Source of the DNA: a virus
Taxonomy: Duplodnaviria; Heunggongvirae; Uroviricota; Caudoviricetes
IMG/VR virus record: IMGVR_UViG_2541047682_000007
Reading direction: 5' to 3' (one strand)
DNA: 11,224 bases
The position numbers were made by a program, and so were the translations under genes. The notes under the pieces are model-generated. The model searched no databases, was not told where the DNA came from, and was given only the letters and a program-made list of their open reading frames with translations. Shown piece after piece: positions 256 through 8,681 of the stretch. The first letter of the stretch is position 1. Every line of letters begins with the position of its first letter.

Positions 256-3201
256 TTAGTGCTTCCCTTCTATTAAGTCTAACCTAGCTTTTATTCTTTC
301 TATTTCTCTGCGCTGCCATGCTGCCTCGATATAGAATAAGAGATCAGGTCTGACCCCCCATCTAGATCCTGCTGGCGTTATTTCAACGCGCTCAATGATG
401 TCTTCCATTACCATCACTGGATTATCATCCTCATCAACAATGATGCTCCCGTCATTATCAGTCAGCGGCATTTCCCTTTGGCCAGTAATGACGTCATCAT
501 ATACTGCGGGATAATCGTCATAGCAAAGAAAGGCATAGCGGCATGTTGTGCTTTCTTCTTCCATGAGTCCGTGAGAAATAAGAACATCACGAAGTTGCTG
601 CGCGATTACACCATGATGTATCCTCGCCCCTTCTTCCCCCTTTATAGCGACAGCGTTCAGCCATTTATAAGCGATATACCTGACGTCACCCCAGGCATCC
701 AGCAATGTTTCGTCAGGAGAGACCGGCTCTGTCTTTAATGTTCCGTCACTGGTAACCACAGGATTGGAGCCAAGATAAACTATCGAGAACCTGTTTCCCG
801 GACCACCAAGAGCATTTACATTATCAAGATAAGGTTTAACATCTCCGTTCTCAAAAAGATGTTCGAGTGCGTTATATACCGCGCGACGTGGAGTACTGCT
901 TCTGGAACCATGCAACGTTATCATTGCACCATCTGCTGAAGACGTTGTTTCACCGCCGCTAACGATTAATCTCTGAGCGGTAACATCATCAGACGGTACT
1001 TTCTTCGCAATAATGGCGTAATTACCCTCAAGTTTGACTTCCGCGCGAACTTGTCCTGATGTACCTGCATGGACAGTCAGTGACTGGACGGCAACATCAT
1101 CTGTGAAATCAACGGGTACAGGAACCGTCCTCACGCCTGACGTCGACATAAAAGTAGGAAGCGTTCTGTTAGGAGTGGCTCCGTAGACAAAATCCCTTGA
1201 AACAAATTCTTCCTGTTTAATTTTCACCCTGAAACAATACAAATCAGCCGGGTGACCATCGTGAACATAAGGATATTTTCTGTTGTTATCCCCTATGCTC
1301 CATGGGTTTAGAAAGTCTTCCCCACCGAAAATGTAGTACAGCCAGTTGTCTTTGATACAAACTGAACCAACACCAACCGCAGAGTTAACTATTCCGCCCT
1401 GATAAATCTGATCAGTAACATTAACCCACTCTACATTATCCAGACTCCACTCATTGACGTTAACTCTGGTCATAAATGTTCTTGGATAGTTTCCTGCATA
1501 ACGGTTATCAGGTTCTCCTCCTTCCCACTCACCAAATGCGCGCTCACTGCCAAAAATAATCAGCTCATCGCCAACTTTGGCAAAAGGAAGGTTTGAGTGA
1601 TGAACATTATTTGGGAAGCGAAGAGAATTCCATGATGTACCTAAATCAGAGCTTCTGTGCAATGAACTACCGGGTTGAGTACTTAATGTCCCCCTGGTCG
1701 TCAGATACAGAATGCCATCATAATATTTTACACATGGCTCAGATGCATTCGCCTCATATTCTGCAGGTATGCGTCTGCGAACAAAGCTACCAGGAGAACC
1801 GAAAGCATCAGAGAAATAGAGTATCCCAAGCTCGCGTGGACCAATATCACCATTATGGTAGCCAACAGCAAAACTGTTATCGCTAATCGTCGCAAAACTG
1901 TGAATCTCAGTAACAGGAGTGCTTCCGTCAACAAAAGAAGGAATAGTTCCAAGACTGGTTTTTCTCCATGGTGACGAGTGAAATGATGTACCAAAACTCC
2001 AGTATCTACCCTCGTTATTCTGATCCACATCCTGGGTATTTTGCGTCGTAACTGTAAAAGTATTTTTATCAATAACAGTAGTCACCGTCATATTCCCGGT
2101 AACACCTGTAACACCAGAGTTTGAGAAGTTGACAAAATCACCAGCAAATAATCCGTGATCAGTAATGCGAATATAAGCGACTTGCTGATTTGCTGCTTTC
2201 GTTATACCACCATAAACGCGAAGGCTGCGACTCATTGGGCGATCCCACAACTCTGCAACCTGCAGTTTATTTCCGCTCACGGTCCGCGTCTCAATTACAG
2301 CAAAAAGGCGATTTCTGACAACCCCCATACTCATGCAGTGATAGTTAACTGTGGGATAGTTTTCATGTAAATCTGTAAGCCATTCCGGCGTTGTCCAGGT
2401 CTTCCCGTCATCTCCTGAGCGAACCCATGCAACATGGAGGTTATTTACACCATGGCGGTCTCCAGCCATAAAAGGCGCATAGATGACATTGTCATATACA
2501 AACGTTTTATCCTGCGTCCAGGCGTTGTACCACGGTGTATCTGTAATTTTAAATAACTCTCCCTGGATAAAATCTTCAGAAACATAAAAAAGAGGCTGAC
2601 CCGGTATTCTCTCAAATAAAAAACGAGCATTTTTAAATCGACTGACATCTGGAAGAGTTGATACTTTAAAAGTAAGCCCTCGCCCATCTATCTTTTCACC
2701 ACCTGTTGCAACAGAAAGTAATTCTGATAGAGCTGATGTATCATCATGAACACCATCACCAATAGCCCCCCAACCTCTTACATCATAACTGTCTCTCCAT
2801 CTTGCTATCTGAAGTTTTGGGTATTTATTCGCTCCATCTGGGTCTTCTAATTGCTGCCGTAGTTGATCAGGATCATACTTCAGCACATTCTGGAAATAGA
2901 ACTGCTGTACGCCATACGCATCGTACACAGCCATAGAATGGCCTTGCACAGTTACGAACTTGGCAATCCGTCCGTTATATACAGGGTAACCAGCAGCGTT
3001 AATGATGATTGGTTGCGAAACAGGAACGTGAGAGCCGTCTTCGTTCTCTACATAAACCTGAATCCGGTTTTCAGGATTTACCGGGTCAGTGTCAATTTTA
3101 CCGATATAAATTTTGCCATTGGCTACGGCTTTAAAAGAACGCGCCATAGTGAAGAGTTGCGAAGGCATCGATACAATCACATTGGCTGTAATGTCTGTCA
3201 T
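256..3201 (-). CDS. Tailspike protein: P22-type head-binding N-terminal domain fused to an endo-N-acetylneuraminidase (endosialidase) domain with a C-terminal intramolecular chaperone (S74-type) domain
   Basis: 981-aa ORF. N-terminus [13 protein letters not shown]...[21 protein letters not shown]...[15 protein letters not shown]...LKYDPDQ closely parallels the P22 gp9 head-binding domain as I remember it. Central region carries sialidase Asp-box motifs ([16 protein letters not shown]). The C-terminal ~150 aa resemble the auto-cleaving chaperone domain of K1-phage endosialidases. RBS GGAG 8-9 nt upstream of ATG at 3201. Confidence 0.9.
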
Positions 3202-3301: not shown

Positions 3302-4204
3302 TCAGTAATTATGTACTGAAGGAGGTAATTCTTTATTCTTAAGTCTCATCCATGCGGAAAGATTCGTTGGTCCGTCTGGCTCATTGATATCAACATCTCG
3401 TGTGTGATTGATTAAAACGTCTCTCGCCATATCGATAATACGGGAGAACTCATAACCGCAGTCATGACATCTGCCGGAATAGTTCGATTGAATTTGTTTT
3501 AGCGCCGGATACAGTTCGCGGAATAATGCCTGTGAGCGGTTGGCATAATCCCATAGCCATACAAGGCTGTTTGCTTCTTTTGCAGAAAGCTCGTTGGTTT
3601 TCTTCTCTTGTTTGCCGATGAACTCACCTTCAAGCACTACCCTGTGGATGTACTCTACTGCTTGTGGTATCTGAGATGCATCAAGCTCTTCAATACTTTC
3701 CACATTGAAACGCTGATGAATCATTGCATAAGCTTCTGGGTACATTAGATGCTTTTTGCTGACTAGCATATTTACAGCATCACGAAGCGGAGTCCTGTCA
3801 TCAACAGATGTTTTCTTCCGTGCATTTGCTGCCTCTCCCTTTGTCCAGTAGTCATGCAGCACAGTAAAGCATTCTTCCTGGTACTGAATCAGTTTATCGC
3901 GGATGTCAGCACGAACTTTCTCAGGGTTGATGCTGAACAGCCATCCATTTAACTTCTTCAAAGGAAGGCAGAGTAGCTTACGAAGCTTACCATCAGCGGC
4001 AACCATGTTCATATGAACACAGTTGAATTTGCTAATCTGCTTCATGAGTTTTGTTTGCTGCGTTGACCAGCTCATTCCGAGGTTTTCAACGATTGGCTTC
4101 ATCGCAACATATGCAACTCCGGCAGCCATGGCGGTGATAATTTGCTGACCGTTGAATGGCACGTAAGAGGTGTTCACTGCTTCTAAAATTGCTATACTAT
4201 TCAT
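3302..4204 (-). CDS. ant: Antirepressor Ant (P22 immI-type, 300 aa)
   Basis: ORF-track ORF 3302..4270 contains an internal ATG at 4204 preceded by GGAG with a 10-nt spacer. From that start the product is 300 aa, the length I recall for P22 Ant, beginning [21 protein letters not shown]. The longer 322-aa reading begins with GTG at 4270 and lacks a good RBS. Position between arc and the tailspike matches P22 immI. Confidence 0.8.
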
Positions 4205-4285
4205 GTTGGTTTTTCTCCACGGATTTACCGACAACCGAAGCCCTGACTGTTCCAGCAGTTGGGGCTTCACTGTTTTGATTTCTTT
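4205..4285 (+). ncRNA. Candidate Sar-like antisense RNA opposite the ant ribosome-binding site and start
   Basis: Plus-strand extended -10 element TGcTATACT (4190-4198) would put a start near 4205, directly opposite the ant start codon. Plus-strand hairpin GAAGCCC..ACTG-ttccag-CAGT..GGGCTTC (4237-4268) is followed by a T-rich tract ACTGTTTTGATTTCTTT (4269-4285). This is analogous to the P22 sar RNA. Inference only. Confidence 0.3.
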
Positions 4286-4436
4286 GCCGCATCAAGCATC
4301 ACTTCTGAAAACGTGCGCTTGCCACTGAATACTCTTTCTCTTCTCAATTTTTCGTTCGTGCCAAATGATTCGCCATGAACAAAATTTGGTCTTAAAATGG
4401 TAATCGCAATCTCTTTGACTACTGCATCCAAGCGAA

Positions 4437-4589
4437 TCACACCGTTACCCCCTCTCTCTTCAGGCTGTCTATCAGGCGCTTGATAACCTCTGAGTTAAAC
4501 GACCTGCACTCTTCCTTTGCCCTGCTACCGATAGCATCCTTTAACGACTGCGGCATCCTTACCAAAATCTTACTTATTTCTTTCTCCAT
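4437..4589 (-). CDS. arc: Arc repressor (ribbon-helix-helix, 50 aa)
   Basis: ATG at 4589 preceded by GGAGG with a 5-nt spacer. Product MEKEISKILVRMPQSLKDAIGSRAKEECRSFNSEVIKRLIDSLKREGVTV shows the P22 Arc pattern (MP-F/Q..., GRS-NSE). The longer track ORF begins with TTG. Divergent from mnt, upstream of ant. Confidence 0.8.
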   Translation of the reverse strand: MEKEISKILVRMPQSLKDAIGSRAKEECRSFNSEVIKRLIDSLKREGVTV

Positions 4590-4703
4590 GTTACCCTCCA
4601 CGCAAACAACTCTTTTCGAATACAAAAGATAGCAAAGTGAGTATATCTAGTCAAAATTTTTTTGCATACACTTTGCTATCAAATTGAATACCAAAGGTGT
4701 TAT
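4590..4703. promoter_or_regulatory. Divergent Pant/Pmnt control region containing a 13-bp perfect inverted repeat (aGATAGCAAAGTG 4627-4639 / CACTTTGCTATCt 4669-4681; 29-bp spacer)
   Basis: Intergenic region between divergently oriented arc and mnt. The inverted repeat was read directly. Minus-strand TTGACT (4654..4649) with TATCTT (4631..4626) 17 bp downstream is a plausible Pant. Exact hexamers are uncertain. Confidence 0.5.
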
Positions 4704-4952
4704 ATGGCAAAGGGTGTGTCAATTTCTCCAACTACGGTAAGAATCCCTGAATCTTTACGCGAGGCTCTTGCTGTCAGAGCATCAAAAAATGGTCGCTCTG
4801 TTAACTCCGAGATCGTCATGATTTTGCAAGCCGCGATTGATGAAGATAGGTCGCCAAAGTCAGTTGAGTCATTTGCTCAGCAAGAAGCTGATAAATTCAA
4901 AGAGGCGCTACTTGAGACGCTAAAGACCATGTATGCTAAGGATGAAAAATAA
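4704..4952 (+). CDS. mnt: Mnt repressor (ribbon-helix-helix, 82 aa)
   Basis: ATG at 4704 with AAGGTG 4 nt upstream. Product MAKGVSISPTTVRIPESLREALAVRASKNGRSVNSEI...ALLETLKTMYAKDEK parallels P22 Mnt (82-83 aa; ANGRSMNSE...TLKDLYKK). The track ORF is 5'-extended by an implausible upstream start. Confidence 0.85.
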   Translation: MAKGVSISPTTVRIPESLREALAVRASKNGRSVNSEIVMILQAAIDEDRSPKSVESFAQQEADKFKEALLETLKTMYAKDEK

Positions 4953-5488
4953 TGCTGCACACAATTCATTTCTTATGCCCTGTTAACACTGCCACTGTTG
5001 GGCAACTTCAGAACCACTGTCTCACCGCATTATCTCAAGGCGCAACTGAATTAAATATCCATATATCAAGTCAGGGAGGGGAAACTGCTGCTGGCTTTAC
5101 TGCGTATAACTTTCTTAAGTCACTCCCTGTTACCGTTAGAACTCACAACATAAGCAATGTTGAATCCATAGCTAATATCGTTTTCCTGGCTGGCTCAGAA
5201 CGTTTCGCAAACCCATTATCAAGATTCCTGTTACATCCTCTATTATGGTGCTTTGCCTCCCCAGCCGCCGACCATGCCAGATTGAGAGAGTACGGGAAAT
5301 GCCTCGATAACGATCTTGATCGCTTCGTTGAGACGTTCAATATCGACATCGGAACCCATATTAGGTGGGCATCCCTGATAGCAGACTCGACCATTTTGGA
5401 TGCTAACAAGGCTCTTGAGCATGGCATAATTAATTCCATAAAAACTGCAAGGCTGGCATCCAATCAGGCAAACTGGTGGGTTGTTTGA
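4952..5488 (+). CDS. ClpP-like (peptidase S14 / ClpP-crotonase fold) serine peptidase homolog, 178 aa, translationally coupled to mnt
   Basis: Start ATG overlaps the mnt stop (TAATG at 4950-4954). By-eye alignment to E. coli ClpP: ISSQGG vs INSPGG; NVESIANIVFLAG vs GQAASMGAFLLTAG (catalytic Ser aligned); RFANPLSRFLLHP vs RFCLPNSRVMIHQP (catalytic His aligned); LDNDLDRF vs ERDTERDRF (catalytic Asp aligned). Followed by a terminator hairpin. Confidence 0.7.
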   Translation: MLHTIHFLCPVNTATVGQLQNHCLTALSQGATELNIHISSQGGETAAGFTAYNFLKSLPVTVRTHNISNVESIANIVFLAGSERFANPLSRFLLHPLLWCFASPAADHARLREYGKCLDNDLDRFVETFNIDIGTHIRWASLIADSTILDANKALEHGIINSIKTARLASNQANWWVV

Positions 5489-5538: not shown

Positions 5539-5767
5539 AGTCAAACATAGTGTTTCTAAAGTCTCTCGCATACCCTGCTAACACTCTCATTCTATTATGA
5601 TTGTTAGCAGACATGTGAGCTACAGGATGAAAAAGAGCAATCAATGAATACCTGTTCTCATCAAAAAGATTTTGTGCATAAACGAGAGCGGTATTTGAAG
5701 TGGTTTACTGAATTTGGCCACCTGAACAGAGGTGATATGCTCACCTCAGAACAACACAGGTGCCATA

Positions 5768-6915
<1,148 letters not shown>

Positions 6916-7271: not shown

Positions 7272-7362
7272 TGGTGACCGCGAAGGAATGCGGGTATGCC
7301 TTAATTTGTCCCGAGTCGAAGTATTAAATCAGCGTTATTTCCTTGGGCCGTGTCCATTCTGA
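7192..7362 (+). CDS. Hypothetical small basic protein (56 aa) immediately upstream of erf (position of arf/kil in P22)
   Basis: ATG at 7192 preceded by AGGAG with a 6-nt spacer. Product MSLATTVKESKLQRRMYTQKALWYRHNGDREGMRVCLNLSRVEVLNQRYFLGPCPF. Stop is 10 nt before the erf start. Below the ORF-track length cutoff, found by manual translation. Confidence 0.3.
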   Translation: MSLATTVKESKLQRRMYTQKALWYRHNGDREGMRVCLNLSRVEVLNQRYFLGPCPF

Positions 7363-7372
7363 GAGCAATCAT

Positions 7373-7978
7373 ATGAGCAAAGAATTTTACGCAAGACTGG
7401 CAGCTATTCAGGAGAATCTGAACGCGCCAAAGAATCAGTACAACTCATTCGGCAAATATAAATACAGAAGCTGCGAAGATATTCTTGAAGGCGTTAAGCC
7501 GTTACTGAACGGTCTGTTTTTATCAATCAGCGATGAAGTTGTGTTGATTGGTGATCGGTATTACGTGAAAGCCACGGCAACTATTACCGATGGCGAAAAC
7601 AGTCATACGGCAACCGCTCTTGCACGAGAGGAAGAAAGCAAGAAAGGAATGGATTCTGCACAAGTTACGGGAGCTACAAGCTCTTATGCACGCAAGTATT
7701 GCCTCAATGGTTTGTTCGGCATTGATGATGCGAAAGATGCAGATACAGACGAGCATAAACATCAGCAGAACGCAGCAGCAAAGCAATCAAAACCATCACT
7801 TACACCTGAACAGGTTCTAAAAGCATTCACTGACGCAGCAATGCAGAAAAACACCGTAGAAGAGCTTAAACAGGCGTTCGCCAAAGCGTGGAAGATGCTC
7901 GAAGGGACGCCGGAGCAGCACAAAGCGCAGGACGTTTACAACATCAGACGAGACGAATTAGAAGGGGCAACTGCTTAA
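7373..7978 (+). CDS. erf: Erf (essential recombination function) single-strand annealing recombinase
   Basis: Product from ATG 7373: MSKEFYARLAAIQENLNAPKNQYNSFGKYKYRSCEDILEGVKPLLNGLFLSISDEVVLIGDRYYVKATATITDGENSH... is near-identical in its N-terminal ~130 aa to my recollection of P22 Erf. The track ORF is extended upstream from a TTG. Confidence 0.9.
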   Translation: MSKEFYARLAAIQENLNAPKNQYNSFGKYKYRSCEDILEGVKPLLNGLFLSISDEVVLIGDRYYVKATATITDGENSHTATALAREEESKKGMDSAQVTGATSSYARKYCLNGLFGIDDAKDADTDEHKHQQNAAAKQSKPSLTPEQVLKAFTDAAMQKNTVEELKQAFAKAWKMLEGTPEQHKAQDVYNIRRDELEGATA

Positions 7979-8361
7979 TGGCACATTCGATTACAGTAAG
8001 ACTAAACAAACCCGCAAGAGAGTTTCAGGGCGGGGAAAATATCGGATTCAACATCCGTGCTGGCGTTCAGTATTACGATCGCCAGACAAAAAAGAAAGAA
8101 TGGACAAACTACAGCGCCGTTGTATTTGCCAAGCCGGGAGCGCAAGCGGATTACTATCGTAGCGTTCTGGTTGAAGGAGGCATTGTAGAAATTACCGGAG
8201 AAAACATCAGGGTTGATGTTTATCAGGGGCAAAATGGTCAATCAATCACTCTTGAATTACTGAATGCAAAGATTGGATTTGCAACTTCAGGAAACAGCCA
8301 ACAGCAGCAAAGTAGCAATCATCAAAATAATCCTGAATACGACGATTCCATCCCATTCTGA
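7978..8361 (+). CDS. ssb: Phage single-stranded DNA-binding protein (short SSB, 127 aa)
   Basis: ATG overlaps the erf stop (TAATG at 7976-7980). OB-fold-like core (KEWTNYSAVVFAKPGAQADYYRSVLVEGGIVEITGE, compare E. coli SSB [33 protein letters not shown]). Gln-rich linker and canonical acidic C-terminal tail ...PEYDDSIPF (E. coli SSB ends DFDDDIPF). Confidence 0.85.
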   Translation: MAHSITVRLNKPAREFQGGENIGFNIRAGVQYYDRQTKKKEWTNYSAVVFAKPGAQADYYRSVLVEGGIVEITGENIRVDVYQGQNGQSITLELLNAKIGFATSGNSQQQQSSNHQNNPEYDDSIPF

Positions 8362-8384
8362 TTTAGAAAAATAAGGATTTAATT

Positions 8385-8681
8385 ATGCCAGCGCCTTTGT
8401 ATGGTGCGGATGACCCGCGCCGCTGTTCCGGCAATTCCGTATCGGAGGTGCTGGATAAATTCAGAAAAAACTACGATCGAATAATGTCTCTACCGCAGGA
8501 AACGAAAGAGGAAAAGGAATTTCGCCACTGTATATGGCTTGCAGAGAAAGAAGAACGCGAGCGAATTTACCAGACATCAATCCGACCATTCCGCAAAGCC
8601 ACATATACCCACTTCCCTGAATATATCGACCCGCGCCTGCGTAATTACCGCTCACGCTATGGCGCTATCAGTAATGACTGA
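8385..8681 (+). CDS. Hypothetical protein (98 aa), Ea-region
   Basis: ATG at 8385 with AAGGA 7 nt upstream. Same strand and operon context as erf-ssb. No recognisable motif. Confidence 0.55.
   Translation: MPAPLYGADDPRRCSGNSVSEVLDKFRKNYDRIMSLPQETKEEKEFRHCIWLAEKEERERIYQTSIRPFRKATYTHFPEYIDPRLRNYRSRYGAISND

Follow-up and report, generated by a model that had tools for sequence, protein, structure and literature searches.

In a P22-type immI region, the 114 bp between the divergently transcribed arc-like gene and its mnt-like neighbour carry a perfect 12-bp inverted repeat, the two arms of which are copies of one motif placed on either side of the -35 element of the leftward promoter. On balance, and judging from sequence comparisons, we think it probable that a ribbon-helix-helix repressor encoded in the locus itself, most likely the Mnt-like protein (4704-4952), uses the arms as operator sites in mirror orientation. 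Coordinates throughout refer to the window, that is, the whole stretch of 11,224 nucleotides that was analysed.

The window holds the immI region of an Escherichia coli prophage of P22-like (Lederbergvirus) type. The arc-like gene, orf57, the sar RNA and ant lie on its leftward (minus-strand) side, and the mnt-like gene is on the plus strand. The principal features are as follows:

3302-4204, minus strand: ant, the antirepressor gene (P22_AR_N, 5e-45; P22_AR_C, 3e-28; gene length from RefSeq)
4205-4271, plus strand: sar antisense RNA (RF00262, 83.9 bits, gathering score 43)
4437-4589, minus strand: arc-like gene, 50 amino acids (Pfam PF03869, 5e-12; best PDB matches Arc and pArc)
4704-4952, plus strand: mnt-like gene, 82 amino acids (PF03869, 1e-10; best PDB match 1mnt, 2e-6, over residues 12-73)

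Several features place this segment in immI: mnt diverges from arc-ant, both repressors are of the Arc-type ribbon-helix-helix family (PF03869), the antirepressor carries P22_AR domains with sar at the ant start, and the whole lies in the neighbourhood of the tailspike gene of a P22-like genome. The initial annotation had put the repeat between the divergent arc-like and mnt-like genes of such a region, and gene, PDB and RNA matches agree on that location. The extent of the intergenic region was likewise borne out, its ends being set by ATG codons at 4589 (arc-like, minus strand) and 4704 (mnt-like). RefSeq gene calls for an identical segment in E. coli ATCC 11775 agree with ours. The clear RF00262 match at the start of ant indicates that the antisense layer of ant control found in P22 has been kept, and ant itself would be the regulated target of the leftward promoter. 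The C-terminal region of the 82-amino-acid Mnt-like protein resembles that of P22 Mnt, and the DNA-reading ribbons of the two window proteins are SKILVRMP (Arc-like) and SPTTVRIP (Mnt-like).

Other genes surround this core. A 57-amino-acid open reading frame (4267-4440, minus strand) lies between the arc-like gene and sar/ant, its start overlapping the arc stop; a Pfam search with it returned no match. P22 has no gene at this place, whereas phages Emek and vB_EcoP-611R6 annotate a similar small open reading frame. On the other side, a ClpP-like open reading frame of 178 amino acids (4949-5488, plus strand; PF00574, 2e-11) begins with an ATG that overlaps the mnt-like stop (TAATG), and the pair looks like an mnt/Clp-protease-like operon that would be expressed from the prophage. 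As in phage CUS-3, the tailspike (256-3201, minus strand) has a P22 head-binding domain and is an endosialidase specific for K1. Further along (5732-6915 on the plus strand, then 7343-8681), an IS3-family element with transposase orfA and orfB leads straight into erf and abc2; the gene order of P22-like genomes is interrupted there, and the prophage of the window is thus rearranged. The flanks differ in E. coli ATCC 11775, where ISEc12 lies between ant and the tailspike gene. The segment is present in 107 of 5426 complete E. coli genomes (about 2%), K1 strains included, and is also carried by the Lederbergvirus phages phiv205-1 and vB_EcoP-611R6.

The inverted repeat consists of GATAGCAAAGTG (4628-4639) and CACTTTGCTATC (4669-4680), with 29 nt between the arms. 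It had been described as a perfect 13-bp repeat; the repeat is real, but it is 12 bp long, because positions 4627 and 4681 are both A where a T would be needed for a further pair. The length of the spacer and its AT-richness were both confirmed. Only 0.06% of 5000 dinucleotide-preserving shuffles of the 114 bp reached a perfect inverted repeat of at least 12 bp with a spacer of 3-60 bp. The 11.2-kb window holds no second such repeat, and 4 of 200 whole-window shuffles had any. Chance is therefore ruled out by the shuffles as the origin of the repeat. Among 36 sister loci of the same type, the arms match at 12 of 12 positions in 9 and at 11 of 12 in the remainder, which differ at arm position 5 (a G/T polymorphism, seen in one arm or the other) or at position 11 (T>C). 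Full 12/12 identity is peculiar to the window lineage and is not a conserved feature in itself.

The leftward promoter and a three-site motif array

A promoter scan and our own weight-matrix scan agree on the best promoter in the region, a leftward one with TTGACT (4654-4649), a 17-bp spacer and TG-C-TATCTT (4634-4626). The same leftward promoter is top-scoring in every relative examined. In fixed register it is identical to the annotated P22 Pant at 21 of 29 positions, and its spacer is identical at 11 of 17 (P about 0.001). Its elements are:

4649-4654, minus strand: -35 hexamer TTGACT (promoter scans; invariant or nearly so in 14 relatives)
4626-4634, minus strand: extended -10, with TG at 4634-4633, then C, then TATCTT at 4631-4626 (promoter scans; overlaps site 1, below)
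4653-4663, no strand assigned: conserved A/T tract AAAATTTTTTT (conserved columns; just upstream of the Pant-like -35), probably UP-element-like

The repeat is laid over this promoter. The left arm covers the promoter spacer, the TG and part of the -10, and the 29 bp between the arms hold the -35 element and the A/T tract.

The initial annotation had read the arms as two distant half-sites of one operator. This did not hold up, as the arms are two of three copies of a motif (two of three or four in relatives), and each copy is palindromic in relatives. The motif, ATA(G/C)CAAAG(G)TG, occurs three times in the intergenic region of the window; ATASCAAAG is found 3 times in these 114 bp, against 0.17 expected in the whole window. 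The three sites are spread over 76 bp:

4628-4644, no strand assigned: site 1, the left arm GATAGCAAAGTG plus the inner flank AGTAT, with the core CAAAGTG at 4633-4639 (lies over the Pant-like spacer and extended -10)
4666-4680, no strand assigned: site 2, the right arm CACTTTGCTATC plus the inner flank ATA, with the core CACTTTG at 4669-4675 (repeat finder, relatives)
4688-4703, plus strand: site 3, an imperfect copy, ATACCAAAGGTGTTAT, oriented as site 1 (motif copy 4688-4699, motif count)

Site 3 overlaps the Shine-Dalgarno sequence of the mnt-like gene (AAGGTG, 4694-4699), and relatives have CACGGTG or CACAGTG there. As in operators of ribbon-helix-helix proteins, short repeated (pseudo)palindromic motifs thus lie over promoter elements of their own locus. 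That each copy is palindromic in relatives, and that there are three to four of them, fits independent sites for dimeric or tetrameric proteins. The region also contains a direct repeat, GAATACAAAAG (4618-4628) and GAATACCAAAG (4686-4696), the left copy of which overlaps the ant -10 and start region; this left copy (4618-4628) may be a degenerate fourth site.

For the rightward mnt promoter, the promoter scan and the weight-matrix scan across relatives gave no consistent candidate. Those considered and set aside as inconsistent across relatives were TTGCAT (4662-4667) with TTGAAT (4684-4689), TGcTATCAA (4675-4682) and a P22-like TATATC (4642-4647).

Fixed register in relatives and the candidate reader

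Scans with the Mnt-like protein recovered 61 loci which, once duplicates were removed, gave 14 distinct intergenic versions and a gap-free alignment of 62 columns. With the A of AGTCAA (the -35 element as read on the other strand) as reference point, the left core is centred at -13 and the right core at +23 in every relative. The resulting 36-bp core spacing is constant in E. coli, Serratia (L007), Tatumella (L008) and several metagenomic viral contigs. Outside the window lineage the core is the palindrome CACNGTG, present in 2-4 intergenic copies, enriched about 140-fold there and found almost nowhere else in the loci; repeated palindromes of this kind are the usual signature of sites for dimeric proteins. 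Additional copies in relatives are found at two places, one about 21-22 bp to the left of site 1, where P22 has Omnt, and the other immediately ahead of the mnt start.

The arms also change in concert. Across the 14 versions, their mirror complementarity is kept in 86% of cells compared with 77% in shuffles, and none of 500 shuffles reaches the observed value; changes in both arms are seen at 4 of the 12 positions, and the central N is free. When the window is compared with phage vB_EcoP-611R6 (L001), all three window sites carry the same CAC>CAA change, in the same half.

Similar layouts occur further afield. In distant Arc-family loci (L112-L118 and L122, upstream of locus position 1201), two palindrome copies bracket a TTGACA promoter, for instance CCCCACTGGGG twice, AACCACCGTGGTT with ACTACGGTGGTT, or AAGCACCGTGCTT with AAGCACGGTG. 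Promoters bracketed in this way seem to be common in the Arc family.

Which of the two repressors would read the sites can be approached through their ribbons. PMC3413123, citing Knight and Sauer (1989), gives the N-terminal ribbon as setting specificity in Arc and Mnt. Among the loci compared here, Mnt ribbons of the form SPTT[VI]R accompany CAAAGTG/CACTTTG cores (E. coli, Serratia), and [AS]P[YFL][GS]VR accompanies CACNGTG. The Arc ribbons found over the one CACNGTG core vary widely (SRILVRM, VDCIVRM, APLGVRI and APFGVRM), and SRILVRM (L001, L034) is found with both core types. The type of core thus follows the Mnt ribbon and not the Arc ribbon, which suggests that the Mnt-like protein is the most likely reader. 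This association comes from essentially one evolutionary transition and is suggestive only. Scans with the Arc-like protein returned mostly the same contigs and no recombinants separating arc from mnt. Against a symmetric homodimer on the window sites stands the asymmetry of their halves, which read CAA on one side and CAC on the other.

Under this assignment, a repressor bound to site 1, over the spacer and extended -10, would exclude RNA polymerase from the leftward promoter of the arc-like gene, orf57 and ant, and the antirepressor would thereby be kept off in the lysogen. This is the task of Mnt in P22, which would here be done at the place of the P22 Arc operator. Sites 2 (36 bp away, beyond the -35 element and the A/T tract) and 3 (at the mnt ribosome-binding site) would probably serve autoregulation of mnt and stronger occupancy; as the mnt promoter could not be placed consistently, these roles are guesses.

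Other readings of the repeat

The strongest competitor, which we hold to be unlikely although far from negligible, is that the Arc-like protein (4437-4589) reads the arms, or that both repressors share the sites, site 1 being a descendant of P22 Oarc. Site 1 does lie at the P22 Oarc position, within a promoter and spacer that match those of Pant to the extent given above, and the left arm matches the -10-proximal half of Oarc at 9 of 11 positions. A 5-bp outer symmetry, AGATA-N12-TATCT (4627-4648), spans the promoter spacer and has a counterpart, TGATA-N12-TATCA, in Serratia L007. It is absent from phage vB_EcoP-611R6 (L001), however, and a search for an Arc-specific operator common to the window, L001 and L007 turned up only this weak symmetry. 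The distribution of ribbons also speaks against Arc, since the same or nearly the same Arc ribbons occur with both cores and very different Arc ribbons occur with one core.

The loci in which the two proteins are most alike deserve mention here. In L064 the ribbon is IAPFGVRM in both proteins, and in L008, L064, L065 and L066 the ribbons of the Arc-like and Mnt-like proteins are nearly identical (gene starts near locus position 1400-1560). In those four loci both proteins should read the same CACNGTG, which favours the Arc or shared-site reading and would imply shared operators.

From these loci an evolutionary scenario can be drawn, which we offer tentatively as one that is improbable as it stands but worth stating. 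The paralogous Arc-like and Mnt-like proteins would have begun with the same ribbon, sharing three to four CACNGTG operators at fixed positions, and the window lineage would be a later stage, possibly with composite sites. If so, one set of sites would be contested between a dimeric and a tetrameric reader, much like the operators of CI and Cro in lambda, and the same-ribbon ancestral state would still be seen in Tatumella L008 and the viral contigs L064-L066. In the window lineage, TT would have replaced YG/YS in the Mnt ribbon, and alongside it CAA would have replaced CAC in one half of all three sites. The unchanged halves may then remain for the Arc-like protein, with both proteins side by side on composite sites.

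Quite improbable, in our estimate, is the looping proposal of the initial annotation, here taken to mean that a single Mnt-like tetramer spans the two arms, each a distant half-site, with the -35 region looped or wrapped. In P22 Mnt the C-terminal region forms the tetramer, and the Mnt-like protein of the window aligns with P22 Mnt through this region. The arm centres are 41 bp apart, or about 3.9 turns, which would set them on roughly the same face of the helix, and the 36-bp core spacing is strictly conserved. Yet each site is a complete palindrome in relatives, there are three or four sites and not two, and the dyads, at 36 bp or 3.4 turns, would lie on roughly opposite faces; the fixed spacing is equally explained by the promoter elements between the sites. 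We know of no repression loop as short as this 36-41 bp separation. On geometry, looping by a single tetramer seems unlikely.

That the repeat acts as an RNA hairpin is very improbable. The RNA in question might be either the minus-strand transcript of late read-through, with the hairpin serving as an attenuator ahead of UUUUGUAUU, or a long mnt leader. The 12-bp stem folds at -17.3 kcal/mol on the plus strand and -16.1 kcal/mol on the minus strand (z-scores of -3.5 and -3.2), and RNAalifold recovers the stem in the alignment of relatives, with a consensus energy of only -6.6 kcal/mol. Covariation cannot tell an RNA stem from protein sites in this case, since protein sites in mirror arrangement leave the same signal. 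P22 late transcripts cross the ant region (PMC2629481), and late-operon read-through on the minus strand would contain both arms. The leader-RNA hairpin that had been put forward as the second option is weak in that the predicted ant start lies outside the arms and the 29-nt loop, the most conserved part of the region, carries the -35 element. The stem has just 5 G-C pairs among its 12, its centre does not pair in 5 of 14 relatives, and in 25 of 36 sister prophages a mismatch in mid-stem can form a pair on neither strand; moreover, extra motif copies lie outside the stem. A terminator scan of the region found no terminator-like site, and an Rfam search of the intergenic region gave no family even at E<=1, sar alone being detected, outside it. 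The repeat thus lacks the G+C-rich stem, short loop, U tract and pairing retained in relatives that mark terminators and regulatory hairpins.

Equally improbable is a repressor-free origin of the repeat as a by-product of back-to-back promoters with an extended -10 in each arm (TGcTATCTT leftward, TGcTATCAA rightward): the left arm does include the best promoter's TG and some of its -10, and the right arm mirrors it, but the rightward copy lacks the key final T and a -35 element and was not recovered by the scans, and the CAC half, the palindromic cores in relatives and the copies at sites 0 and 3 are left unexplained.

Significance and comparison with known systems

The immI region of P22 is a textbook system for DNA recognition by ribbon-helix-helix proteins. 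Among P22-like phages it varies greatly, and studies have dealt with the P22 version only (PMC2629481, PMC8022706); our literature search found no study of the present variant. If the Mnt-like protein is the reader, the locus would supply a natural ribbon/operator pair for testing how beta-ribbons read DNA, with PTT and CAAAGTG on one side and PY(S/G) and CACNGTG on the other. It would also present a different wiring of antirepressor control, in which one motif is used in three dispersed copies. The practical value is modest and lies in better annotation of prophage immunity and induction control.

As far as the sequence allows one to judge, the control region is of the same kind as the Pant/Oarc/Omnt module of P22, with a new predicted operator sequence and layout. 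It shares with P22 immI the divergence of mnt and arc and the onward order sar, ant, tailspike gene, as well as two Arc-family repressors and a strong leftward promoter that has a putative operator inside its spacer. The claim that specificity differs from that of P22 was upheld by direct comparison, as neither Oarc nor Omnt was found when up to 3 mismatches were allowed; the positional equivalent of P22 Oarc is identical at 14 of 21 positions. The architecture is accordingly that of P22 immI, and the predicted operator specificity is different. In P22, two compact operators (21 bp and about 17-23 bp) lie side by side, each serving one protein, and the promoters overlap. The window instead has one motif in three copies, two of which bracket the -35 element at a fixed 36 bp; in addition, the distance from the -35 element to the mnt ATG is about 26 bp longer, and the extra 57-amino-acid open reading frame lies between arc and sar.

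The array also resembles those of omega of pSM19035, ParG, CopG and MetJ, in which motifs of 7-13 bp, in direct or inverted orientation, extend across promoters and are read by beta-ribbons (PMC3413123, PMC3130281). Those arrays are usually contiguous, whereas the two main putative copies in the window are separated by promoter elements. A further parallel is lambda OR, where CI and Cro share operators, much as the repressors of L008 and L064-L066 should compete for the same three to four sites, set between divergent promoters. The lambda proteins are of the helix-turn-helix type, in contrast to the ribbon-helix-helix proteins here, and in the window the two ribbons have diverged.
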